This document shows positions 3,260 through 56,365 of a DNA stretch of 64,000 nucleotides, in pieces. The notes below the pieces were generated by a model, which was not told the DNA's origin, did no database searches, and saw only the letters and a list, made by a program, of their open reading frames with translations. The stretch's first letter is position 1; each line of letters begins with the position of its first letter. The translations under genes and the position numbers were made by a program. Origin of the DNA: an uncultured Gammaproteobacteria bacterium (GTDB taxonomy: Bacteria > Patescibacteriota > Microgenomatia > Levybacterales > UBA12049); contig CAZRWL010000002.1 of NCBI GenBank assembly GCA_964603935.1, positions 9,210 to 73,209 of the forward strand, in the 5' to 3' direction.

Positions 3260-5623
3260 ATGAAAACCATCAAATTCAAGCCTATAATTTTCCTGTTATT
3301 TCTCTGCATAGTTTTCTTTTACAAAATATTTGCAAATTCAGATCACACCCTTTACCCCGCACTGGACAATATTTACTCATCTTCTCAAGAAAAATCTCTA
3401 TTTTCATATAGTGTCTATACCCACAGAGATCTTCCCCTTTGGAATCCTTATGTTTTCAGCGGTTCTCCATTTGTAGGAAATCCTACTTCCGCAATGTTTT
3501 ATCCTCTAAATATTTTATTTCTTCTGTTTCAAGCAAATCTTTCTTTTAGCTATATGTTCGCTCTTGATGTTTTCCTGATTGGATTATTTACTTATGTATA
3601 TTGCAGGGCTATAAAAATGGATAAATTTGGTTCTTTGATTTCTGCAATTACCATCATGTTTAGCGGTCCGTTAATCACAATGGTCTTCCCGGGACATCTT
3701 CAAAATTTTAACACGTTTATCTGGTTTCCTTTAGCGCTTTTATTTGCGGAGTTAATGATAATAAAGAAAAGCTTAACGTTTTCCATGTTGCTGGGTATTA
3801 CTATCGCCTTTATGCTTATTGCAGGGATTATACAAATTGCAATCTATGAAATTATATCTTTAATTATATATTTTACGCTTAGGTCTGCGTTTGAAATTAA
3901 AAGCTTACCCACAGCTATAAAACTAGCTTTTCTTCTTGGGATTTCTTTTCTTACAGGAGTTTCTATCGCAGCTATTCAATTGATGCCAGGCATAGAATTT
4001 TCCAGTCTTTCAGAAAGAGGCGATGGGCTAAGCTATATTTTTGCATCTGATTTCTCAGTCAATCCCCGTCAAGTCATTTCTTCTATTTTTCCTTATTTCT
4101 TTGGCTCACCCATCAACTCGACCTACTGGGGAAAAGGAAATTTTTGGGAATCGACCCTGTACGTTGGGATTCTGCCTCTATTTTTCGCAATTTCCTCAAT
4201 AATACTCAGAAGAAATCGTTATGTTTTAATTTTCTCAATCATCGGGATCGTTGCGTTAATTTATTCTTTTGGTAAATACGGCCCGATTTTTCCTTTCCTA
4301 TACGGTCATATTCCCGGCTTTGATCACTTCAGAGTAGCAGGCCGTTTTCGTTACGTATATGTATTTTCACTTTCTATTCTTGCGGGATTTGGAATTAATT
4401 TCCTACTGTACAATTTTAAAAATAAATTAAAACATTTATTTCTCAAATTTTCAGTTACCATCCCTGCAATAATACTTACATTTATTATTTTTCTTTTATT
4501 TCTTGCTCCTAGCAAATTTAACGTATCTGTCTACGAAAAATATGTGCTTCGAAATAGTTTTGCTATGGGAATAAATCACACGACTCTATACAATCAAACA
4601 AAAGCAGATATTATAGTTTTTCTGACAATTATATTGGCTTTATATTTAGCAATAGTTTTAAAAACCAAAAAAATAATCGGATTAAATCAGTTAAAAGTTT
4701 TTATTGTTTTTGTCTGTATCTTGGATTTATGGTTATTCGGCTCAAGATTTATCGCTACAAAAAATATAAAAGAAATTTACAAACCAACACCTATAATAAA
4801 CCGGCTGATAAGCAACGGGCCTATCTATAGAGTTTTTGACATGGGAGGAGATTATATACCGCTTCTTGGTGAATATAAAATAGAAAGCATAACAGGCGTT
4901 CATCCTCTGTATTTAAAGGATTACCGAGATTTTATTTGGTCTATTGGAAAACATGCAAATACACCTTATGAATCATCTTTTCAAATAAATGAAATTTTCC
5001 ACCCAATATTTCTAAACTTATTAAATGTGAAATACGTAATTTCAAATAATAAAATATCCCTGCATGGATTCTCAGAAGTACTGAATTCAAATTCTACTGT
5101 CACATACGGTATTCAACCTAACCTTACACGCTATTTGTATGAGAACAGCAATTCGCTGCCTAGAGCATATATTGTTCCTAATGCTGTAGTTGTGCCGGAC
5201 AAGAAAAAAATATTAAATTTGCTTTCAAACAACGGCTTTAATTCAAAAAAATATATTCTTTTAGAAAAAAAATCGTTAAATATTCAGCTTGAGAACAACT
5301 CCTCTTTTGAAGAAATCAATGTAGATAGAAGTTCTTTTAATAAAATTCATTTATCGGTAAAAATGAAGGGGAGCGGTTTTTTGGTCTTAAGCGAAATTGC
5401 ATATCCGGGCTGGAAAGCTTTCATCAACAAAAAGGAAGTAGAAATATTAAAAGCTAACAATATTTTAAGATCGATATATTTAACATCCGGTCTTCACAAC
5501 GTAGACTTTATTTACGACCCCGATTCCTACACGGTTGGAAAATATATTTCGCTTACCGCGCTTTCTGCAATTAGCATGTTTTTCATAATTAAAGGTTTAA
5601 TTGCTTTTGTAAATCGTAACTAG
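3260..5623 (+). CDS. Large YfhO-like polytopic membrane protein with C-terminal extracytoplasmic domain (putative glycosyl/lipid transferase)
   Basis: 787 aa. The N-terminal ~450 aa are densely hydrophobic, with NPYVFSGSPFVGNPTSAMFYP as in the YfhO family. A C-terminal ~300 aa soluble domain follows. Confidence 0.6.
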   Translation: MKTIKFKPIIFLLFLCIVFFYKIFANSDHTLYPALDNIYSSSQEKSLFSYSVYTHRDLPLWNPYVFSGSPFVGNPTSAMFYPLNILFLLFQANLSFSYMFALDVFLIGLFTYVYCRAIKMDKFGSLISAITIMFSGPLITMVFPGHLQNFNTFIWFPLALLFAELMIIKKSLTFSMLLGITIAFMLIAGIIQIAIYEIISLIIYFTLRSAFEIKSLPTAIKLAFLLGISFLTGVSIAAIQLMPGIEFSSLSERGDGLSYIFASDFSVNPRQVISSIFPYFFGSPINSTYWGKGNFWESTLYVGILPLFFAISSIILRRNRYVLIFSIIGIVALIYSFGKYGPIFPFLYGHIPGFDHFRVAGRFRYVYVFSLSILAGFGINFLLYNFKNKLKHLFLKFSVTIPAIILTFIIFLLFLAPSKFNVSVYEKYVLRNSFAMGINHTTLYNQTKADIIVFLTIILALYLAIVLKTKKIIGLNQLKVFIVFVCILDLWLFGSRFIATKNIKEIYKPTPIINRLISNGPIYRVFDMGGDYIPLLGEYKIESITGVHPLYLKDYRDFIWSIGKHANTPYESSFQINEIFHPIFLNLLNVKYVISNNKISLHGFSEVLNSNSTVTYGIQPNLTRYLYENSNSLPRAYIVPNAVVVPDKKKILNLLSNNGFNSKKYILLEKKSLNIQLENNSSFEEINVDRSSFNKIHLSVKMKGSGFLVLSEIAYPGWKAFINKKEVEILKANNILRSIYLTSGLHNVDFIYDPDSYTVGKYISLTALSAISMFFIIKGLIAFVNRN

Positions 5624-11184: not shown

Positions 11185-11214
11185 TTGAAATTATATCAGC
11201 TATTGCCTTATAAT
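11185..11214 (+). promoter_or_regulatory. Sigma70-type promoter: TTGAAA - 18 nt - TATAAT, 23 nt upstream of the 11238 ATG. No Shine-Dalgarno sequence.
   Basis: Read directly from the sequence: -35 at 11185-11190, -10 at 11209-11214. Confidence 0.45.
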
Positions 11215-18878: not shown

Positions 18879-20622
18879 TCCATACAAAATGATATTTATT
18901 AATCTCATTGCCTCATTAGTATTGCTGTTATCATTATTTTCCTACAGATTCATATATCCCAAGAAAAATATAAATTTGCTATTACTTCTTGTATTAATTA
19001 GTCTAATTCCCCTAATAAGCGTATTGAGAAAAGGAACTTACGAGAGCGGGGACTTAACCATACACACTCAATTCCTGATGTCTTTTTATGAATCCCTTAG
19101 AGACGGTAATTTTATACCCCGCTGGAGCAGTCAAATAATTTATGGCTATGGTTACCCCCTCTTTATCTTCGCGTATCCTCTGCCCTATTATCTAGGATCA
19201 TTTTTTCATTTTTTAGGCTTTAATTTTGTTGATAGTTTAAAAATTGTTTTGGCTTCATCCTTTATATTATCAGGCATAACAATGTACCTATTCATAAAAG
19301 AAGAGTTAAAAAATAAACTCTCAGCATTTGTTGCAGCGTTAACCTATATTTTCGCGCCTTACCACCTCATTGATTTACATTTTAGAGCAGCAATTGGAGA
19401 AGTAATAGCTTTTTCTATTCTTCCTCTTTGTTTTTTTACAATAAAGAAGATTTCAAATCACTTATCCCTAAAATGGTTTTCATTATCCGCAACAAGCTTC
19501 GCACTTCTTATCCTCTCTCATCAAGCTATTTCATTAACGCTTTTACCTTTTATTGTTATTTATTGCATTTATTTATGGGCTATTAAAAACAGGAAAAAAT
19601 TTAAAGATATTTTTTATCCAATTTTTTCTATTGTTTTTGGAATTCTTTTATCCTCTTTTTATTGGCTGCCTGTAATACTAGAGTCGAAATACATTAATTT
19701 ATTAACTAACGGAACAATATCATTTATTAAGCTCAATGAAATTGTTTATTCTCCATGGAAAGCGGGGCTTTTATTTCAAGGACCACACGGAGAATTATCT
19801 TTCATGCTTGGTTATGCCCAGTGGATTATTATAGTTTTTTCTGTAATTTTATTGCTTAAAAATAAAATTAATCCTGACAAAAGAACATTGTACTTAATTT
19901 CTCTAATTTCTTTTTCCATCCTGCTTGCTATGACTCAGTCTTTTTCCAAACCAATATGGATGAGCATTCCCCTTCTTAGGGGGTTTCAATATTCATTCAG
20001 AATGCTCCTGTTAACTTCTTTTTTTGTTTCGATAATTGCAGGCATAACAGTAAAAAATATTTCCAATAGGTTATTTCTTATTGCATTATGCTTCTTAATA
20101 ATATTTTCAACTGTTCTCAATTGGGGGAACAGAAAAACTCTTCCCCAGTTAGACGAGGTCGCTATTCAACTCAACTTTCCAAATTCAATAACAAAATTAG
20201 GCGAAGGCACAACCATTTGGGTCGACTCTAATAAATTTTCTTCAAATCAAAGAACTGTTCCTCATATAATTACTCTTCAAGGTAAAGCCGAAATTATTGA
20301 AAAACAGAGAAGTTCCGTAAGACACGAATATTTAATTAAAGTTTTTTCTCGAAACACTCAATTCAAAGAAAATACTTTATATTTTCCGGGCTGGAATGTA
20401 AAAGTTGACAATCAATATTACCCTATTAATTTTACTTCCAAATTATCACCGGGAATAATAAATTTTACTCTGAATGAAGGAGTATACAAGGTAGAAATAA
20501 TTTTTGTGAATACGCAAGTCAGATTTTTTTCGAATCTATTGAGCAGTTTCTCGTTCTTCACCTTAGCGCTACTATCCTTAATCTTTCTGTTTAGGAAAAG
20601 GCGTAAAAATATTCTGGTATAA
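18871..20622 (+). CDS. Polytopic membrane protein, putative GT-C glycosyltransferase with C-terminal extracytoplasmic domain
   Basis: 583 aa, ~13 TM helices, first loop GTYESGDLTIHTQFLMSFYESLRDGNFIPRW, C-terminal TM anchor. Confidence 0.6.
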   Translation: MTDPYKMIFINLIASLVLLLSLFSYRFIYPKKNINLLLLLVLISLIPLISVLRKGTYESGDLTIHTQFLMSFYESLRDGNFIPRWSSQIIYGYGYPLFIFAYPLPYYLGSFFHFLGFNFVDSLKIVLASSFILSGITMYLFIKEELKNKLSAFVAALTYIFAPYHLIDLHFRAAIGEVIAFSILPLCFFTIKKISNHLSLKWFSLSATSFALLILSHQAISLTLLPFIVIYCIYLWAIKNRKKFKDIFYPIFSIVFGILLSSFYWLPVILESKYINLLTNGTISFIKLNEIVYSPWKAGLLFQGPHGELSFMLGYAQWIIIVFSVILLLKNKINPDKRTLYLISLISFSILLAMTQSFSKPIWMSIPLLRGFQYSFRMLLLTSFFVSIIAGITVKNISNRLFLIALCFLIIFSTVLNWGNRKTLPQLDEVAIQLNFPNSITKLGEGTTIWVDSNKFSSNQRTVPHIITLQGKAEIIEKQRSSVRHEYLIKVFSRNTQFKENTLYFPGWNVKVDNQYYPINFTSKLSPGIINFTLNEGVYKVEIIFVNTQVRFFSNLLSSFSFFTLALLSLIFLFRKRRKNILV

Positions 20623-20633
20623 TCCAATCATCT

Positions 20634-26896: not shown

Positions 26897-26919
26897 AAAA
26901 ATTGATTATACCAAAAATT

Positions 26920-31074: not shown

Positions 31075-33543
31075 ATGAATTTATTCTCTCAGATAAAAGA
31101 AAAGACTTCCTTTCAATGGAAGAACTTATATGTCTCAAAACGCAATATTATCATTGTGTCTGTAAGTCTAGTTCTAGCTATCATTACCCTATCCATTCCA
31201 ACATATATACTTCCGGCAACTAAAGAGTATGTGCAAGCACAGCAAGTGAAGAAAGATGCAAAAGATTTACAAAAACACCTTCAAACAGCCTCTAGTAAAC
31301 TAGAGGAGCTAACAGAACTCAGACGCACATCTCCGTTTAAAACAAAAATTCAAAGTAATAATAATTCAAGTAACAAAAATGATTTAGCAATTGTCGCTGT
31401 TGCATATGCGCAATCTCCTTATGACGCATCTCAGCTTCAATCATACATTCGACATGCAGAGCAAACAACTACACTAAGTAACGAACTATTAAGTGAGATC
31501 GAAGCAATAAAAGAAAATACGGTAAAACTCCAACAGGAAGCAGGTAATCCCAACCGTTATGTTGATGAGCATTTATATGCAGAGGCATTGCAGGAAGTTA
31601 AAGAAACAGACAATACAATTAAAGCCACGTATGAACTAGCTACCTTTTATTCAGAATATGGAAAAGCTTCTGCTTTATTTGCGACAGGTATTGCACTAGT
31701 TGAAATCCAACTTCAGCAAAAACAGGAAGTCCAAAATTCAGTAGTAGTTGCGCAAAAACAGCTCCAAGATGCAAATGAAATATTAGCATCTATTAACAAA
31801 AATGAAGCATTTCCAGAAGACTTACGAACAGTGAGCAGTCAAACACAACAAGCATATACTCAGTTATCTCAAGCTCTCTCTCAACTTATATCAGTATCAA
31901 AGAAAAATCCTGATACGCAAGTTGTATACGTACAACAAGAAATTGTTGGCCAGTTGGCTATAGATTATGAGAAATGGAGAGAAATAGAATCTCAAGTATT
32001 GGATCAAGATACGATAAATCGATTTAATGCCAAAGCAAAAGAGCTTTCCCAAAAGATCGAACAGGCAAATCAGAACCAAGTCTCAAATCTTCAGGTAGTT
32101 CTCAAAGTTTTTACCAAAGAAGAAGCGGTTAACCTTTCATCTAAACCTTCGGGATTTCAAACATTTAGGGGATTTCATATCGATAATTCTAACAATCCAA
32201 TAGCCTTACCCGGACAAAAAGTAACAATTACCAATAAAAAGACGGGCGAAGCTGTCTCAACAACTGACACGCCAAATTTCTTTGCTCACAATCTTACCCC
32301 TGGTGTTATGTATCGAGTAGTCGCAGATCCAATTCCGGGCTATCAAATTTCAAATATGGTCTGTTACAATTGTAGCTCCCCAGCAGCCTATTCCTATAAT
32401 AATGGTAATGTTTTTGAGATTGATATTCCTGAAAATACCTATTATGGTGTTTATTTCAAATACATAAAAGGTGATAATGCACAACGATTGCCCACTACCT
32501 CTCCAATACAGATAGACGATTTAGGAATTTCCATAAGCGGCATACGAACAAACCTTGCAATAAAAGCGGGAGAATCCCAGCCTGCATTCACAATTACATC
32601 AACTGGATCTTCTGGAATCTCAATGTATGGATATCCCACAACCTATGGCCCTGGAATTAATTGGAATATAAGCTCAGCAGGCCTTACTGCTGGCCGATCA
32701 ATTGAGATAAAAGTGCAAGTTAATAATAATATTCCAGCAGGCACATATAAAGGAAGCGCCATTATTATTAGTTACCCATCCCAAAAACGTTATACTATAC
32801 CTAATATTGAAGTTACTGTACAAAAAGAAACAACTACTAATCCTACACCAACTTCCGGTTCTAACTCTGATACAACTCCCACACCTACATCAGGAGGTAC
32901 AACATCACCTACCCCTACCCCAGCACAGGCTCCATTTGGCCTTCAAGCAAGTGCTTCTTCCGTAAACCTTACCATAGAAGAAGGAAAAAGCACTAAGGCA
33001 TTTGATATAACTTCTACTGGCGCAACACAATTTTCTCTATACGGATACCCAACAAATTACGGTCCAGGCATAAACTGGTCAGTTTCTTCCGGTGGGATAT
33101 CAAATGGACAAAGTGTACCAGTAGAGATTTCAGTAAATAGCGGTATTAATCCTGGCACGTATTCTGGAAATGCAATTGTTAAAGATCAATCGGGAGCACA
33201 AATTTCTATTCCAGTAAAAGTTACTGTTGTTCGCACGCAAGTTTCACGCTTTGTAAAAGTAACCTCCCCAAATGGCGGTGAAGCACTCAAGGTTGGAGAT
33301 AAAGTTAATATCTCTTGGGAAGGAAATGATATTGATAAGTGTAATGTAGGCTATTCATTCGGCCTGGGATCGTTAAATAATATAAATCCCAATGTATCTA
33401 CGACAGGGAATGGCTCTTATGAGTGGACTGTAAATATTGGTAATACTGCCAATACACAAGTTAAAATCGATCTGTTGTGCTACAAAACAGGAGTTGGACA
33501 AGTAAGTGATCAATCTGACAACTTCTTTACTGTAAATCCATAG
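31075..33543 (+). CDS. Exported or membrane-anchored repeat protein. It has an N-terminal signal anchor, a Gln-rich coiled coil, two ~65-aa internal repeats, a Thr/Pro-rich linker and a C-terminal Kre9/KNH-like (Ser-Thr-rich GPI-anchored family type) domain.
   Basis: TM segment IIIVSVSLVLAIITLSIPTYIL. Repeats YGYPTTYGPGINWNISS / YGYPTNYGPGINWSVSS. Linker TTTNPTPTSGSNSDTTPTPTSGGTTSPTPTP. C-terminus VKVTSPNGGEALKVGDKVNISWEG...YEWTV. Confidence 0.7.
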   Translation: MNLFSQIKEKTSFQWKNLYVSKRNIIIVSVSLVLAIITLSIPTYILPATKEYVQAQQVKKDAKDLQKHLQTASSKLEELTELRRTSPFKTKIQSNNNSSNKNDLAIVAVAYAQSPYDASQLQSYIRHAEQTTTLSNELLSEIEAIKENTVKLQQEAGNPNRYVDEHLYAEALQEVKETDNTIKATYELATFYSEYGKASALFATGIALVEIQLQQKQEVQNSVVVAQKQLQDANEILASINKNEAFPEDLRTVSSQTQQAYTQLSQALSQLISVSKKNPDTQVVYVQQEIVGQLAIDYEKWREIESQVLDQDTINRFNAKAKELSQKIEQANQNQVSNLQVVLKVFTKEEAVNLSSKPSGFQTFRGFHIDNSNNPIALPGQKVTITNKKTGEAVSTTDTPNFFAHNLTPGVMYRVVADPIPGYQISNMVCYNCSSPAAYSYNNGNVFEIDIPENTYYGVYFKYIKGDNAQRLPTTSPIQIDDLGISISGIRTNLAIKAGESQPAFTITSTGSSGISMYGYPTTYGPGINWNISSAGLTAGRSIEIKVQVNNNIPAGTYKGSAIIISYPSQKRYTIPNIEVTVQKETTTNPTPTSGSNSDTTPTPTSGGTTSPTPTPAQAPFGLQASASSVNLTIEEGKSTKAFDITSTGATQFSLYGYPTNYGPGINWSVSSGGISNGQSVPVEISVNSGINPGTYSGNAIVKDQSGAQISIPVKVTVVRTQVSRFVKVTSPNGGEALKVGDKVNISWEGNDIDKCNVGYSFGLGSLNNINPNVSTTGNGSYEWTVNIGNTANTQVKIDLLCYKTGVGQVSDQSDNFFTVNP

Positions 33544-33978: not shown

Positions 33979-35286
33979 GTGAATAAAATAAAATTTACTA
34001 TACTTATCCTCGTACTTCTTCTCGGCGTAATTCTAAAATTGCACAATTATTCTATCTACCCGCAAAGAGGAGCGACAAGCGATGAATATTCTTATTCTTT
34101 TCAAGGCGTAAGCCTTCTAACCAAAGGAGTTCCCATTTCCTGGTCTTCTTTTACCCAGTACAAAAATTTAAGGCACTTAACTATTGAAAAACTTTATTTC
34201 CCAATAGTATATCCTTATTTTGACCATACCCCTTTGAATGGAATTGTTACAGGTGCATGGGCAGTAGCTTTCGGAGAAAATACTTTTGAAAAAATTCAAC
34301 TCAAAACCATACGCATTGTTCCAATTGCTTTTTCGACAATATCATCCCTTCTGGTATTTTTAATTGGCGTTAAGTTATTTAATTATAAAACAGCAATTTG
34401 GGCCCTTCTTATCTACACTACAACGGTAATTTTTGCAATTCATGGAAGGGTTGTTCTCGCGGAAAATCTAATTACACCCCTTCTTCTTGGCTCTATTTAC
34501 GCTTTCATAAATTTTTATAAAAAAATTAACATTCAAAAAACACTCATTCTTGGAACTTTAGCAGGCTTAACATTTTGGACTAAGGAATTGGGAGTTGTGA
34601 CTTTTCTTACCCTTTTATACTTTTACTTTTCCGAGAAATTAAAAACAAAATATACGGCTCTGCTTATAATTACATTCCTATCTCTTGTCGGATTGTACAT
34701 TACATATGGGATATATTTCGATGCAGAGGTTTTTTGGAAAATTTTAAACCAGCAGTCCGCAAGAATTATCGGTCCGGACACACTTCCCTACATCCTCTCA
34801 AATCCTATTATTGTAAATAAATTTTACGATGACGGATGGTATTTTTTTGGATTCTTTGCCTTTTTTGCTTCATTTTTTCACTACAAAGAATTAAAATTCA
34901 TAATTGTTCCGGCAACTGCTTATTTTCTTCTTTTACTGTTCTCTTTAACGGAAAAAGGAGAGATGGGGTGGTATATTATCCCTCTTTTTCCCTTTATGTC
35001 TCTTTTTATGGCAAAGTTTTTGGTTGAGCAGGTGCAAAAGATAGGATTTGGCACATTTCCGCTTTTGATTTTTGTTGGGCTCTATCTCCTAGAATATGTG
35101 TATGAAGCAAGTTTTGGGCTAACTCCTTTACAATTTAGAATCGGGTTACTTATTCTTTTTTTACCAATCATGTTAACGGTAATATTCAAAAAAGAAAAAG
35201 CTTATAAATTCTTATCCCATTTCTGGTTTTATGCATTTATAGCGGCAAATATTCTATTGACCTACAACTACATCCACCCCTCCTAA
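33979..35286 (+). CDS. Polytopic membrane protein, putative GT-C glycosyltransferase (GTG start)
   Basis: 435 aa. First loop QRGATSDEYSYSFQGV (DE motif loop as in ArnT/PMT-like GT-C), ~11 TM helices. Confidence 0.6.
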   Translation: MNKIKFTILILVLLLGVILKLHNYSIYPQRGATSDEYSYSFQGVSLLTKGVPISWSSFTQYKNLRHLTIEKLYFPIVYPYFDHTPLNGIVTGAWAVAFGENTFEKIQLKTIRIVPIAFSTISSLLVFLIGVKLFNYKTAIWALLIYTTTVIFAIHGRVVLAENLITPLLLGSIYAFINFYKKINIQKTLILGTLAGLTFWTKELGVVTFLTLLYFYFSEKLKTKYTALLIITFLSLVGLYITYGIYFDAEVFWKILNQQSARIIGPDTLPYILSNPIIVNKFYDDGWYFFGFFAFFASFFHYKELKFIIVPATAYFLLLLFSLTEKGEMGWYIIPLFPFMSLFMAKFLVEQVQKIGFGTFPLLIFVGLYLLEYVYEASFGLTPLQFRIGLLILFLPIMLTVIFKKEKAYKFLSHFWFYAFIAANILLTYNYIHPS

Positions 35287-35426: not shown

Positions 35427-35816
35427 TTAAGAAATTTGGAAGAACTCTAAGATTGGCTTAAGATGATCTTGAATATATTTATTTACCTGAGTATCCGTAA
35501 AATAATCTTTAGCTAAATTGTTACCAATACCCTCTAAATATCTTGACTCCTTACTTCTTATAAATAGAAAGTTATAATGTTTATGAATTTCCCTATCCCA
35601 CATGGCCAATATTTTTTCTCTCAAAGAATATAAGGATTCATTTGTCCGTTTCGCTCTCCAATACGGATCTCTATTCGTTAGACCTGCGTCAATTGCATGC
35701 AATGCAGCGTAAAATGCTACGGTCAATTTCCAGTCCCTATAATTAGAATCTGTTATGGAATCCAAAAATGATTTATTGTGAGAAGACTGCTTTCTGTGGA
35801 TTTGTTCTAATGGCAT
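35427..35816 (-). CDS. Hypothetical alpha-helical protein, possible HEPN-like (R-x4-H at 75-80). Fourth gene of the NYN cassette.
   Basis: 129 aa. WKLTVAFYAALHAIDAGL helix then REIHKH. 2-nt gap to the upstream gene. Confidence 0.55.
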   Translation of the reverse strand: MPLEQIHRKQSSHNKSFLDSITDSNYRDWKLTVAFYAALHAIDAGLTNRDPYWRAKRTNESLYSLREKILAMWDREIHKHYNFLFIRSKESRYLEGIGNNLAKDYFTDTQVNKYIQDHLKPILEFFQIS

Positions 35817-35818
35817 AA

Positions 35819-36142
35819 CTAGAATATTTTATAATCGTTATCTGTCTCCGCAAATTGCTCTTCTTGAACATATTCAAAATTAAATGCAAAAGAGTAATTG
35901 AATCTCTCGTGAACATTAGCCTGAGCATCTATCAACTTACTTAGCTCTCTGTCAGAAGCTCTATTTTTTAATATAACTTTAACTATTATATCGTCGTGAT
36001 AAATCTGTAAGTATATATTTTTTATTATATTTATACCCCTATATATTTCCTTAATTATGGAACCCAAATCTCTCGTTGAGTATGTTTCAGAATGAACACT
36101 TATGGGAGTTGTCGTATTGGGATCTATTGTAAATGTTTGCAT
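35819..36142 (-). CDS. Hypothetical protein, acidic C-terminus. Third gene of the NYN cassette.
   Basis: 107 aa, no recognisable family. 2-nt intergenic gaps on both sides indicate translational coupling. Confidence 0.55.
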   Translation of the reverse strand: MQTFTIDPNTTTPISVHSETYSTRDLGSIIKEIYRGINIIKNIYLQIYHDDIIVKVILKNRASDRELSKLIDAQANVHERFNYSFAFNFEYVQEEQFAETDNDYKIF

Positions 36143-36144
36143 AT

Positions 36145-36432
36145 TTATTCCTTTATACTTTTGCCCATCTGAGCTTCCAATATTAACCTCAATTCTCTTG
36201 CAATATTCAAGGGTATTGTAACTCTTGAAACTAACATGCCTATCTGGTTACCCTTTTCATCTTTATCATTGGGATGAACATTTACAAAGTCAAACATAAC
36301 TTCTTGATTCGATGTTGAAGTAACCGATACGATATTTGCATGATGACTTTTTCTTATTTCATCACTTGCTTTTACTATTAAATTTACCTTTTGAGGCGTC
36401 TTAATATTGCTCACGGACACATTATAGCACAT
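36145..36432 (-). CDS. Small protein resembling the DUF3467 family. Second gene of the NYN cassette.
   Basis: 95 aa. HHANIVSVTSTSNQEVMFDFVNVHP...GMLVSRVTIPLNIARELRLILEAQMGK fits my recollection of the DUF3467 pattern (AN..V.HT..E..LDF....P...VSRI.M.P..AK.L...L). Confidence 0.55.
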   Translation of the reverse strand: MCYNVSVSNIKTPQKVNLIVKASDEIRKSHHANIVSVTSTSNQEVMFDFVNVHPNDKDEKGNQIGMLVSRVTIPLNIARELRLILEAQMGKSIKE

Positions 36433-36493
36433 CTATTAATTAGCGAGAATGCAATGGTTAATTTACGACGTGGTTTTGAGGCGAGAGAAATTA

Positions 36494-37030
36494 TTACCTG
36501 GATTTGATAAAAGGCAGTAAATCTTCTTTCTTCAGCAGTGTTGACTCCGAACAAAAACTTACCATTCCAACGCTTGGTTTGTGAGAAAAACCTATATATT
36601 CTACGATTTTACCTTTTTCGCGCGCCTTTTTGATTGCCGGGGCTAAATCTGTATCGGAGGAAACAAGAATAATTCGGTCAGATGTATTCTCATAGACAGC
36701 TACCAACATATCTACTGCGATTTGCACATCAACGCCTTTCTCATGGTAAACGCCACTACTTTTTAACAGATATCCAAATTGGTAAGAAACTTTATGCTTC
36801 TTGAGTTTTCCCAATAATTTCTGTTGAGCGTCAAACAATTTTTCTGTCTTTGCCGATCCGTCTTGTCTTATCCGACCAACATAATAACATACGCTAACAA
36901 TATTATTAAGCCGAGCAATATAGCTAGCAAATTTGTTGAAATTAAACGAAAGAAGATTATGAAGTTTTAAATCCTTAAGCTTGAAATAAAAATTGCTTCC
37001 GTCAATGAGAATTACACATTTTTGTTTCAT
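36494..37030 (-). CDS. NYN-domain (LabA/YacP-like, PIN-fold) predicted ribonuclease. First gene of the cassette.
   Basis: CVILIDGSNFYF ... KGVDVQIAVDMLV ... DRIILVSSDTDLAPAIKKAREKGKIV: the acidic residues of the NYN/PIN fold are conserved. Confidence 0.75.
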   Translation of the reverse strand: MKQKCVILIDGSNFYFKLKDLKLHNLLSFNFNKFASYIARLNNIVSVCYYVGRIRQDGSAKTEKLFDAQQKLLGKLKKHKVSYQFGYLLKSSGVYHEKGVDVQIAVDMLVAVYENTSDRIILVSSDTDLAPAIKKAREKGKIVEYIGFSHKPSVGMVSFCSESTLLKKEDLLPFIKSR

Positions 37031-37161
37031 CCATTGATTCTACAGCAAAAAATAAAGCCCTGCAAATGTCTTACGACCTCACAGGGCGATTTAGTATCTA
37101 AATACTAGCATAAACGTGGCAGTTTAGTCAATAGATAAAATGCGAAAAATTAGTTTTGATG

Positions 37162-38280
37162 TTAGTTGCGTTGCCTTAAAAATGCGGGAATGTCCCAAGC
37201 GTCGTCGCTATTGCCGTCAAGAGGCGCTTCCTGCGGACTTGGCGCTTGGCCATCATCCTTTGCTAATTCCTGTTTCGGCACGGCATTATTTATTATAGGC
37301 TTGACGAACTCCTTAAGAGTTTGACGCGTGTGATCGAAGCCTGTCGCGATAACGGCAATTTTAATTTGATCGTGCATGGCTTCATCAATTGTGGCTCCAA
37401 AAATAATATTTGCATCCGGGTCCGCAGCGCTGGAAATAATCTTTGCAGCATCATCCACCTCAGTCATTGTCAAATCAGGTCCGCCTGTAATATTGAACAA
37501 AACTCCCCTTGCCCCATCCATAGATATTTCAAGAAGAGGAGATGCAACCGCAGATCTTGCTGCAATCTGAGCTCTGTTTTCTCCGGATCCGGTACCTATT
37601 CCCATCAAAGCAGACCCGGCGCTGCTCATAATAGCTTTTACATCGGCAAAATCAACATTTATAAGTCCCGGAATAGTAATCAAGTCGGAAATTCCCTGAA
37701 CACCTTGAGACAAGACAGAATCTGCAACGCCAAAAGCCTCCAGCAAAGACACTTTTTTATCCACAACATCTAAAATTCTCTGATTAGGAATAACAATAAG
37801 AGTATCTACTTTCTCCCGAAGAGCTTCTATTCCATCTTCTGCCGCAACCATACGTCTGGTTCCCTCGAAAGCAAAAGGCTTGGTTACAACCGCAACTGTT
37901 AACGCTCCTATTTCTTTAGCCGCCCTAGCAATTACCGCGCTTGCTCCTGTTCCCGTTCCACCTCCCATACCCGCAGTTATAAAAACCATGTCCGACCCAT
38001 CAATAAATTCTTTTATTTTTTCGTAAGATTCTTCTGCAGCTTGTCTGCCTACTTCGGGATTGCCCCCTGACCCCAAACCCTTAGTGAGATTTTCTCCGAT
38101 TTGAATTTTGGTTGAGGCTTTTGACAAAAGAAGAACTTGAGCATCCGTATTAACGGAAATAAAATCAACGCCTTTTACAAGACTCGTAACAATCATGGAA
38201 TTAAGAGCATTCATTCCTCCGCCGCCAACTCCCAAGACTCGGATTTTCGCAAAATTTGTGGTTTGGGGTTTAATTAACAT
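37162..38280 (-). CDS. ftsZ: Cell division GTPase FtsZ
   Basis: [13 protein letters not shown] tubulin signature, T7 loop, acidic C-terminal tail. Confidence 0.95.
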
Positions 38281-39635: not shown

Positions 39636-40028
39636 TTAAAAAGAAATAACGGGTTCTTTAAATCTTAAATCTATGCTTTTAAACGTCTTATCTTCTATTG
39701 TAAGCGCTCGCAGTATTCTTTGTAAAGAGGCTATTTGATTATCGATGTTTTTTTGAGAAGAAAGTTTAACTTGCCCATTATTCTGAATATTAATTACATA
39801 CGAAGAATCGAAAAAAGCAATGGAAGAAAATGAGATATTTTTTTCTTTCAGGATTTTTTCAATTTTTGCCGAATTTTCGCTTTTACCCAAAGGGGAAATA
39901 AGCTGCTGGTTTTTTAAAGAAAAAATTACATAAATAAAAAAACCTAAAAAAAGGAATAATTCAAATAGGAAAATCGTTTTTATTTTTTTCCTAAAAATCC
40001 TATTGCTGCGTTTTATCTTTACTAACAT
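39636..40028 (-). CDS. ftsQ: Minimal FtsQ/DivIB-like protein (N-terminal TM plus short POTRA-like region)
   Basis: 130 aa, single TM helix, located between murG and ftsA as ftsQ is in dcw clusters. Confidence 0.5.
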   Translation of the reverse strand: MLVKIKRSNRIFRKKIKTIFLFELFLFLGFFIYVIFSLKNQQLISPLGKSENSAKIEKILKEKNISFSSIAFFDSSYVINIQNNGQVKLSSQKNIDNQIASLQRILRALTIEDKTFKSIDLRFKEPVISF

Positions 40029-56319: not shown

Positions 56320-56365
56320 TATCTAAATTATATCACAAAAAATTTTAAACAATTTTCCTTCAAAT

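Follow-up and report, generated by a model that had tools for sequence, protein, structure and literature searches.

What is the compact run of small genes that lies between ftsZ and a glycan-locus membrane gene in an uncultured bacterium of the order Levybacterales, and do these genes work together? The window analysed here is a stretch of 64,000 nucleotides of contig CAZRWL010000002.1 (assembly GCA_964603935.1). On its minus strand four genes follow one another: one for a protein with a NYN nuclease domain and three smaller ones, here called G2, G3 and G4. They are separated by 61 nt (NYN-G2), 2 nt (G2-G3) and 2 nt (G3-G4). A sequence-only reading had proposed that all four genes share one upstream promoter and form an undescribed toxin-antitoxin, abortive-infection or other defence module. 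Its four open reading frames (ORFs) were exact in size, coordinates and 2-nt gaps, and both flanks were found as described, ftsZ on one side and the membrane gene, a PMT_2 glycosyltransferase, on the other. The ratio of nonsynonymous to synonymous divergence (dN/dS) relative to related genes was 0.05-0.15 for all four, which indicates real genes under purifying selection. No paralogues of the four were present within the 64-kb window. The analysis described below identifies G2-G3-G4, without the NYN gene, as the conserved unit. On balance, and by a modest degree, we favour the reading that this triad is a three-part, toxin-antitoxin- or abortive-infection-like cassette with a swappable toxin pair and a DUF3467 protein as the shared third component.

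A three-gene unit with variable surroundings

The genes G2, G3 and G4 recur in unchanged order, overlapping or 0-5 nt apart, in at least nine distinct loci with unrelated flanks (related loci are given below by L numbers; Table 1), and this order holds wherever the context could be read, down to 41-45% identity. A homologue of the NYN gene was found among these triad loci only in L004/L010; it was missing from at least nine others (L002, L005-L008, L014, L015, L020/L021 and a JGI contig). Co-occurrence elsewhere, on which the four-gene proposal had been staked, thus failed for the NYN gene and held for the other three. The family is rare and patchy: among 5.8 billion proteins there were six clusters of homologues for G4, nine for G3 and four for G2. 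The related loci have a GC content of 31-39% and come from groundwater (Hainich samples). Together with the gene content, these features suggest Patescibacteria, the candidate phyla radiation (CPR). The neighbours of the triad elsewhere are typical accessory or conflict genes. Of the two Fic genes in L004 one is fused to TrmB, and the conflict-type neighbours in L005 are a SLFN_AlbA_2/HATPase_c_4 protein and a DUF433/DUF5615 pair.

The triad in the window also lies within a region that varies between relatives. A common backbone, ftsZ ... ileS-rodA/ftsW-L21-(L27)-parB, is present in the window, L004 and L002. The 6-7 kb that separate ftsZ from ileS differ from one of these genomes to the next and have only the triad in common. 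Between the window and L004 there is a single homologous block of 1,828 bp, which comprises the NYN gene and the triad. Synonymous divergence (dS) between these two genomes was 0.14-0.25 for G2, G3 and G4, 0.72 for the NYN gene and 1.25 for ftsZ, values that are approximate because the genes are short. The lower dS of the triad suggests a more recent exchange or homogenisation than for the genes next to it. It also speaks against the NYN gene as a fixed co-member of the triad.

The last 26-39 bp of ftsZ (CCCGCnTTTTTnAG..GAAATTA) occur in relatives as direct repeats that bound inserted genes, with four copies in L004, two in L002 and one in the window, where the copy is the end of ftsZ itself. 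This pattern suggests serial site-specific integration at the 3' end of ftsZ, which would have built the variable ftsZ-ileS island. The earlier idea of an undescribed toxin-antitoxin- or defence-like module between housekeeping blocks gains support, with the difference that the module has three genes and the intervening region is a variable island.

The triad has its own promoter and is probably leaderless

In 11 of 12 loci the G2 start is preceded, at a distance of 6-9 nt, by a perfect extended -10 element (TGnTATAAT). Its copy in the window, TGCTATAAT, is inside the 95-aa ORF, and the G2 start is therefore most likely the GTG at 36414, which gives a protein of 89 aa and agrees with the gene calls in relatives. 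The conservation of this element makes the triad a transcription unit of its own, and the claim of one shared upstream promoter for all four genes is not borne out. Since the spacing between TGnTATAAT and the start codon leaves no room for a 5' leader, the triad mRNA is probably leaderless. The motif TGNTATAAT occurs at 10 sites in the window against 4.6 expected, and at least four further copies precede ORFs, with 7-10 nt to the first start codon; one of these ORFs encodes ribosomal protein L21. This excess, together with the spacing to ORF starts, suggests that leaderless expression is common in this genome.

Downstream genes of the triad carry different signals. G3 is preceded by a Shine-Dalgarno-like AAGGAA, formed by conserved C-terminal Lys-Glu codons of G2, and the junction between G3 and G4 reads TAG-TT-ATG. 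A 16-nt motif marks the 5' edge of the triad unit, roughly 40-75 nt upstream of its -10 element, and was also found in L004, L002 and L020/L021, despite their different upstream genes. The L020 copy forms an inverted repeat, CACGTCG-N17-CGACGTG, with a T-rich stretch after it. The motif may serve as an operator, mark a recombination boundary or be what is left of a terminator.

G4 is predicted to adopt a HEPN fold

The G4 protein of the window matched nothing in Pfam at E <= 1, the HEPN family PF05168 included, and had no match in NCBIfam or PHROGs. An exhaustive profile search with G4 returned 519 representative relatives, and 26 of the 84 relatives that were aligned matched PF05168 (best E 5.8e-8). 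Using this 84-sequence alignment, AlphaFold2 produced a G4 model with a predicted local distance difference test (pLDDT) score of 97.1 and the helical bundle of the HEPN fold. A six-sequence alignment gave an unusable model (pLDDT 47). No HEPN chain was found when the G4 family profile was run against PDB sequences, and the assignment of G4 to the AF0298/PF05168 type of HEPN proteins is a prediction from the modelled fold and the Pfam matches of its relatives.

Across the superfamily W29, Y36, L84, R92 and Y93 are invariant, and H7, N14, D28, H40, H63 and S88 are nearly so. The sequence-only reading had reached the HEPN fold by way of an R-x4-H string. The fold is supported, but the two strings of this kind in G4 are not conserved residues: R8 of R8..H13 is Lys or Glu in relatives, and R75..H80, outside the superfamily motif, is kept only among members of the close subfamily. 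In HEPN-T proteins of the AF0298 type the Arg of the motif is kept, its His is absent and another conserved His is found further N-terminal (Anantharaman et al., PMC3710099). The residue pattern of G4 is this AF0298-type pattern, which makes a predicted RNase activity through an alternative site conceivable.

G3 is an acidic partner with no recognisable family

Searches of G3 against Pfam, NCBIfam, PHROGs, PADLOC and PDB sequences returned no match, as the earlier reading, which had recognised no family for it, would lead one to expect. Only L70, F89 and Y91 are invariant across the domain, and no conserved catalytic residue was seen, including the G-S...DxD signature. The absence of conserved catalytic residues makes an enzymatic role, such as AMPylation of the MNT type, unlikely. 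A degenerate MNT nucleotidyltransferase was considered for G3 and rejected as an active enzyme on these grounds, there being neither a profile nor a PDB match. We describe G3 as a putative new, non-enzymatic acidic domain, and its sequence pattern could fit a ferredoxin-like beta-alpha-beta-beta-alpha-beta topology.

Remote relatives of G4 (26-32% identity; L022, L023-L025, L026, L028) have an overlapping gene for a 181-216-aa protein immediately upstream. In these proteins, homology to G3 covers the C-terminal ~100 residues. A profile of close G3 sequences alone scored 18-19 bits on L026 and L022, and a broader profile scored 24 bits on L028, which was outside its building set. These matches point to the G3 domain as a constant partner of this HEPN clade. 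Some of the remote loci have a second, four-gene architecture, in which proteins of 229-252 aa (L022, L023, L026) precede the G3-domain protein and the HEPN gene; this protein family is mutually homologous at 25-37% identity and has no Pfam or NCBIfam match. The first gene of L022, encoding 85 aa, matched DUF3467 weakly (E 0.0064) and was not recognised by the G2 subfamily profile, so that its link to G2 is tentative.

The isoelectric point (pI) is 4.8-5.5 for G3 and about 9.1-9.4 for G4. An acidic G3 followed by a basic G4 is the charge pattern of a type II toxin-antitoxin pair; G2 is also basic (pI 8.1-9.5). Other general features of type II-like systems are likewise present, namely small genes that abut or overlap and a patchy, mobile distribution.

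G2, a probable divergent DUF3467 protein, heads different cargos

The earlier suggestion that G2 is DUF3467 gained support through its relatives. The window copy scored 19.5 bits against PF11950 (E 0.001), below the cut-off of 25, but the profile matched 14 of 14 aligned members of the G2 family (E <= 0.01; best 1.1e-9), with 34.7 bits for the L020 copy. By transitivity, G2 can be classed as a divergent member of the family. Its secondary structure, judged from the sequence pattern, is presumably four strands and a C-terminal helix. In the searchable literature we found nothing on the function of DUF3467/PF11950 beyond an incidental mention of DUF3467, and nothing relevant on HEPN toxin-antitoxin systems of the CPR.

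Relatives of G2 at 38-44% identity (L012/L017/L018, L016 and L019) are followed by other genes. Behind them stand an 81-97-aa protein and then a toxin-like protein of 96-102 aa, with 3-4-nt gaps and overlaps. The latter gave matches to Txe/YoeB TIGR02116 (E 9.1e-7) and RelE/StbE (E 9.8e-5) that fall short of the curated cut-offs. These YoeB/RelE-type loci carry the same TGnTATAAT arrangement. The G2 of the window is 37-41% identical to copies that head HEPN-type cassettes, such as those of L015 and L020, and the YoeB-type copies are intermixed with these. As the YoeB-type G2 proteins are no more distant than the HEPN-type ones, one DUF3467 lineage heads two unrelated toxin-type cargos.

These observations lead to a broader, more tentative proposal, which we regard as possible and somewhat short of probable: that DUF3467 is a portable third component of toxin-antitoxin or defence cassettes, acting as regulator, adaptor or trigger sensor from the first position of a leaderless operon. 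Unrelated toxin-neutraliser pairs, either G3 with the HEPN protein or an antitoxin with YoeB/RelE, would be exchanged behind it, and G3 would be a non-enzymatic domain that neutralises HEPN and replaces MNT throughout a HEPN clade of more than 500 representative sequences.

A proposed mechanism and its closest known counterparts

In the mechanism that we propose, the triad would be a self-contained, horizontally mobile operon, transcribed as a leaderless mRNA from its own extended -10 promoter. G3 would be translated from the AAGGAA in the last codons of G2, and G4 by stop-start coupling at the junction with G3. The effector or toxin would be G4, using R92 together with H7 and N14 either to cleave RNA independently of metal or to block translation by binding RNA. 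G3 would neutralise it by direct binding, without AMPylation, in the place that the MNT antitoxin occupies elsewhere. For G2, a nucleic-acid-binding regulator of the operon, comparable to those of omega-epsilon-zeta or PaaR systems, seems most likely, and an adaptor or chaperone is the alternative. Such a cassette might confer plasmid addiction or phage defence.

The closest known kind is HEPN-MNT (type II/VII; HepT-MntA SO_3166/SO_3165; AF0298-type HEPN-T with MNT), with which the triad shares the HEPN fold. The upstream partner is different: G3 was tested as a nucleotidyltransferase and showed no family, structure or G-S...DxD match, and without such features neutralisation by AMPylation as in type VII is not expected. 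The triad differs further in its third gene, DUF3467, and in a G4 without a PF05168 match in the window. A third, DNA-binding component has been speculated for HEPN-MNT modules, which have no DNA-binding part (Makarova et al. 2009). The HEPN-T protein Cpin_6617, which lacks Rx4-6H and is fused to a ferredoxin-like domain dyad (Anantharaman et al. 2013), is a tentative lead; G4 also lacks the motif and G3 may be ferredoxin-like, but in the triad the partner is encoded by a gene of its own. In omega-epsilon-zeta, PaaR-PaaA-ParE and the toxin-antitoxin-chaperone (TAC) systems with SecB-like chaperones there are, as here, three small coupled genes and an extra component that is common to different toxin families, and the gene order of the triad (extra component, antitoxin-like, toxin-like) is that of omega-epsilon-zeta. 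These systems differ in that G2 is a DUF3467 protein without detectable similarity to ribbon-helix-helix (RHH) or helix-turn-helix (HTH) regulators or to SecB, and in that the interactions within the triad are predicted.

Evidence against a toxin-antitoxin role and alternative explanations

Several results weigh against a toxin-antitoxin reading of the triad. None of G2, G3 and G4 matched PADLOC-DB v2 at E <= 1, and the 84 relatives of G4 gave only four sporadic single matches; the PADLOC check that the sequence-only reading had suggested yielded no model for the triad and matched the NYN protein alone (HEC-09 and NYN models). The canonical Rx4-6H motif is not found in G4, as the invariant R92 has no His after it. 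In the triad subfamily H63 is replaced by Tyr, and in some members H40 is replaced by Gln, so that G4 may be non-catalytic. Searches with G2 and G4 found no copies on plasmids, phages or viral contigs. The triad adjoins the ftsZ region in three related genomes, which would also fit a vertically inherited host function. As for G2, no similarity to DNA-binding families, RHH and HTH regulators included, was detectable in Pfam or PDB sequences, and hhalign of the G2 family against E. coli SecB gave a probability of 0.3%.

Many of these points would fit a non-toxic host complex, involved in RNA binding or processing or linked to division, in which the HEPN protein binds RNA without catalysis, a role already suggested for MtlR and some sacsin HEPN domains. 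We consider this unlikely, though it is the best of the alternatives. It would account for the position directly downstream of the ftsZ region in the three genomes, the loss of H63 and the lack of the canonical motif, the missing PADLOC matches, the strong purifying selection on all three genes and the single copy in the window. The ftsZ-ileS region, however, is a variable island that carries repeated ftsZ-end motifs and whose content changes from genome to genome, and at other loci the triad is not linked to ftsZ. The host-complex explanation is also at odds with the rarity and patchiness of the family, with the YoeB/RelE toxin cassettes headed by relatives of G2, and with a triad dS that is low relative to ftsZ and suggests recent transfer.

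A TAC-like arrangement, in which G3 would be a chaperone-addicted antitoxin and G2, in place of a regulator, the SecB-like chaperone that keeps it stable, appears improbable. SecB-like chaperones in TAC systems are common to unrelated toxin families, and by analogy the occurrence of G2 with two such families could be read in this way, as could its presumed strands and C-terminal helix. The SecB-like chaperone idea is not supported by the hhalign result or by any PDB or Pfam link from G2 to SecB. G2 also stands first in its operon and the TAC chaperone last, and G2 is basic (pI 8-9.5) where SecB is acidic.

The NYN gene is a facultative neighbour

We return to the cassette reading of the triad with the gene that it leaves out. 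The 178-aa protein is confidently predicted to be a NYN/LabA-like PIN-fold nuclease, as the sequence-only reading had stated: it matched PF01936 over residues 6-152 with 78.5 bits (cut-off 24.2; E 9.7e-22). The catalytic acidic residues, whose absence would have counted against the four-gene proposal, are present, with D10 (ILIDGSN), D101/D107 (GVDVQIAVD) and D126/D128 (SSDTD) aligned with Asp residues of the NYN structure 2qip. The protein also matched the PADLOC model HEC-09 (E 2.5e-16, 58 bits) and the PADLOC NYN model. HEC-09 is a NYN-domain single-gene candidate embedded in Hma systems that gave no protection against any phage tested (bioRxiv 10.1101/2024.01.29.577857). The similarity runs through the NYN domain, and HEC-09 differs in an extra N-terminal IF2B/5-like region and in its Hma context; no Hma genes are present at the window locus. 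The match thus appears to reflect the common NYN domain only.

Upstream of the NYN gene, an intrinsic-terminator-like hairpin with a U-tract follows ftsZ and is predicted to end the dcw/ftsZ transcription unit. The promoter-like motif TTGCAG-17-TAGAAT, which the earlier reading had assigned to all four genes, is present 6 nt before the NYN ATG. Its -35 half falls inside the 3' arm of this hairpin, and the 8 sigma-70-like matches in the cassette region are no more than the 8.4 that chance would give. The motif is a plausible but only putative promoter. The consensus scan for sigma-70 promoters and terminators missed real features owing to its limit on loop length, and was replaced by cross-locus comparison and folding. 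RNA folding showed no hairpin or terminator in the NYN-G2 spacer, so that read-through from NYN is possible, though not required.

In L009 a 20-codon ORF (MPKTILFIDGENFINKIEEV, then a stop) with the N-terminal signature of NYN lies directly upstream of the triad promoter and is preceded by GATAAT-6 nt-ATG. It may be the remnant of a deleted NYN gene and, if so, NYN can be lost as the triad persists. L002 has no NYN gene between the ftsZ-end repeat and the triad's boundary motif, which lie directly next to each other. A four-gene module, with the NYN nuclease as effector and the three small proteins as its coupled partners, could draw on the adjacency and common strand of the NYN gene and the triad within the block shared with L004, the terminator-free spacer, the intact acidic residues and the L009 ORF, but it is largely refuted by the co-occurrence data and is the least credible of the explanations, even more doubtful than the TAC-like one, given the triad's own promoter, the higher NYN dS, the intact triad of L009 and the arrangement in L002. 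The NYN gene seems best regarded as separate, travelling with the triad only in the closest relatives.

Other features of the region

A 130-aa gene between murG and ftsA occupies the position of ftsQ; its match to DUF4479 was below threshold (21.9 bits, cut-off 25), and no FtsQ or POTRA match was found. Inside the island, on the opposite strand, an 822-aa ORF without a Pfam match combines a membrane segment at the N-terminus with two similar internal domains and linkers rich in Thr and Pro. Its product is probably a surface protein, and the ORF is strain-specific when compared with L004 and L002.

Table 1. Features of the window and of related loci, with positions counted within each locus
Feature	Locus	Position	Strand	Remark
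G2	window	36145-36432	minus	first triad gene, 95-aa ORF; probable start GTG 36414, giving 36145-36414
G3	window	35819-36142	minus	middle triad gene, 107 aa, acidic
G4	window	35427-35816	minus	last triad gene, 129 aa, basic, predicted AF0298/PF05168-type HEPN fold
Extended -10 element TGCTATAAT	window	36421-36429	minus	6 nt upstream of G2 GTG
Extended -10 elements before ORF starts	window	11190-11198, 26905-26913, 56327-56335, 20615-20623, 36421-36429		6-10 nt from first start codon
16-nt boundary motif GCCTCAAAACCACGTC / GCYTCAAAACYRYGTC	window	36467-36482	minus	5' edge of triad unit
16-nt boundary motif	L004	5508-5523
16-nt boundary motif	L002	9287-9302
16-nt boundary motif	L020/L021	367-382 (L020)
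NYN gene	window	36494-37030	minus	178 aa, facultative neighbour
TTGCAG-17-TAGAAT	window	37037-37065	minus	promoter-like motif
Intrinsic-terminator-like hairpin and U-tract	window	37047-37087	minus	RNA fold -19.8 kcal/mol, z = -3.06, then UUUAUUUUUU
ftsZ	window	37162-38280	minus	last gene of murG-ftsQ-ftsA-ftsZ block
Last 25 nt of ftsZ, CCCGCATTTTTAAGGCAACGCAACT	window	37164-37188	minus	island boundary, outside the module
ftsZ-end repeats	L004	~1205-1230, ~1280-1305, ~1380-1400, 4807-4833
ftsZ-end repeats	L002	7918-7956, 9244-9282
PMT_2 membrane glycosyltransferase	window	33979-35286	plus	convergent to the four-gene cluster
130-aa gene	window	39636-40028		ftsQ position
822-aa ORF	window	31075-33543		probable surface protein
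NYN-like 20-codon ORF	L009	65-127		possible remnant
Fic genes	L004	3584-4636, 6717-7730
SLFN_AlbA_2/HATPase_c_4 protein and DUF433/DUF5615 pair	L005	61-1521, 5585-6038
229-252-aa proteins	L022; L023; L026	609-1325; 2787-3476; 3-761		second architecture
Triad context	L002			ftsZ, 360-aa unknown, then triad
Triad context	JGI contig			two unknowns, triad, then DUF5677 and HTH_17
Triad context	L004			ftsZ, four other genes including Fic-TrmB, NYN, triad, then Fic
Triad context	L005-L008			YfhO, then triad; beyond it the DUF433/DUF5615 toxin-antitoxin pair (L005) or Zincin_1 (L006)
Triad context	L009			triad; downstream genes unknowns
Triad context	L014, L015			triad
Triad context	L020/L021			triad at only 41-45% identity

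Implications

For annotation, the triad should be recorded as one unit, without the NYN nuclease. If the cassette reading of the triad is correct, it would offer a well-defined system in which to test how leaderless operons are expressed, and a first functional context for DUF3467 (PF11950). G3 would be a new partner, in the place of the MNT antitoxin, for a HEPN clade of more than 500 representative sequences (50% identity clusters). The triad would then be a three-part cassette with swappable cargo in groundwater bacteria with small, low-GC genomes, of whose mobile and defence genes little is known.

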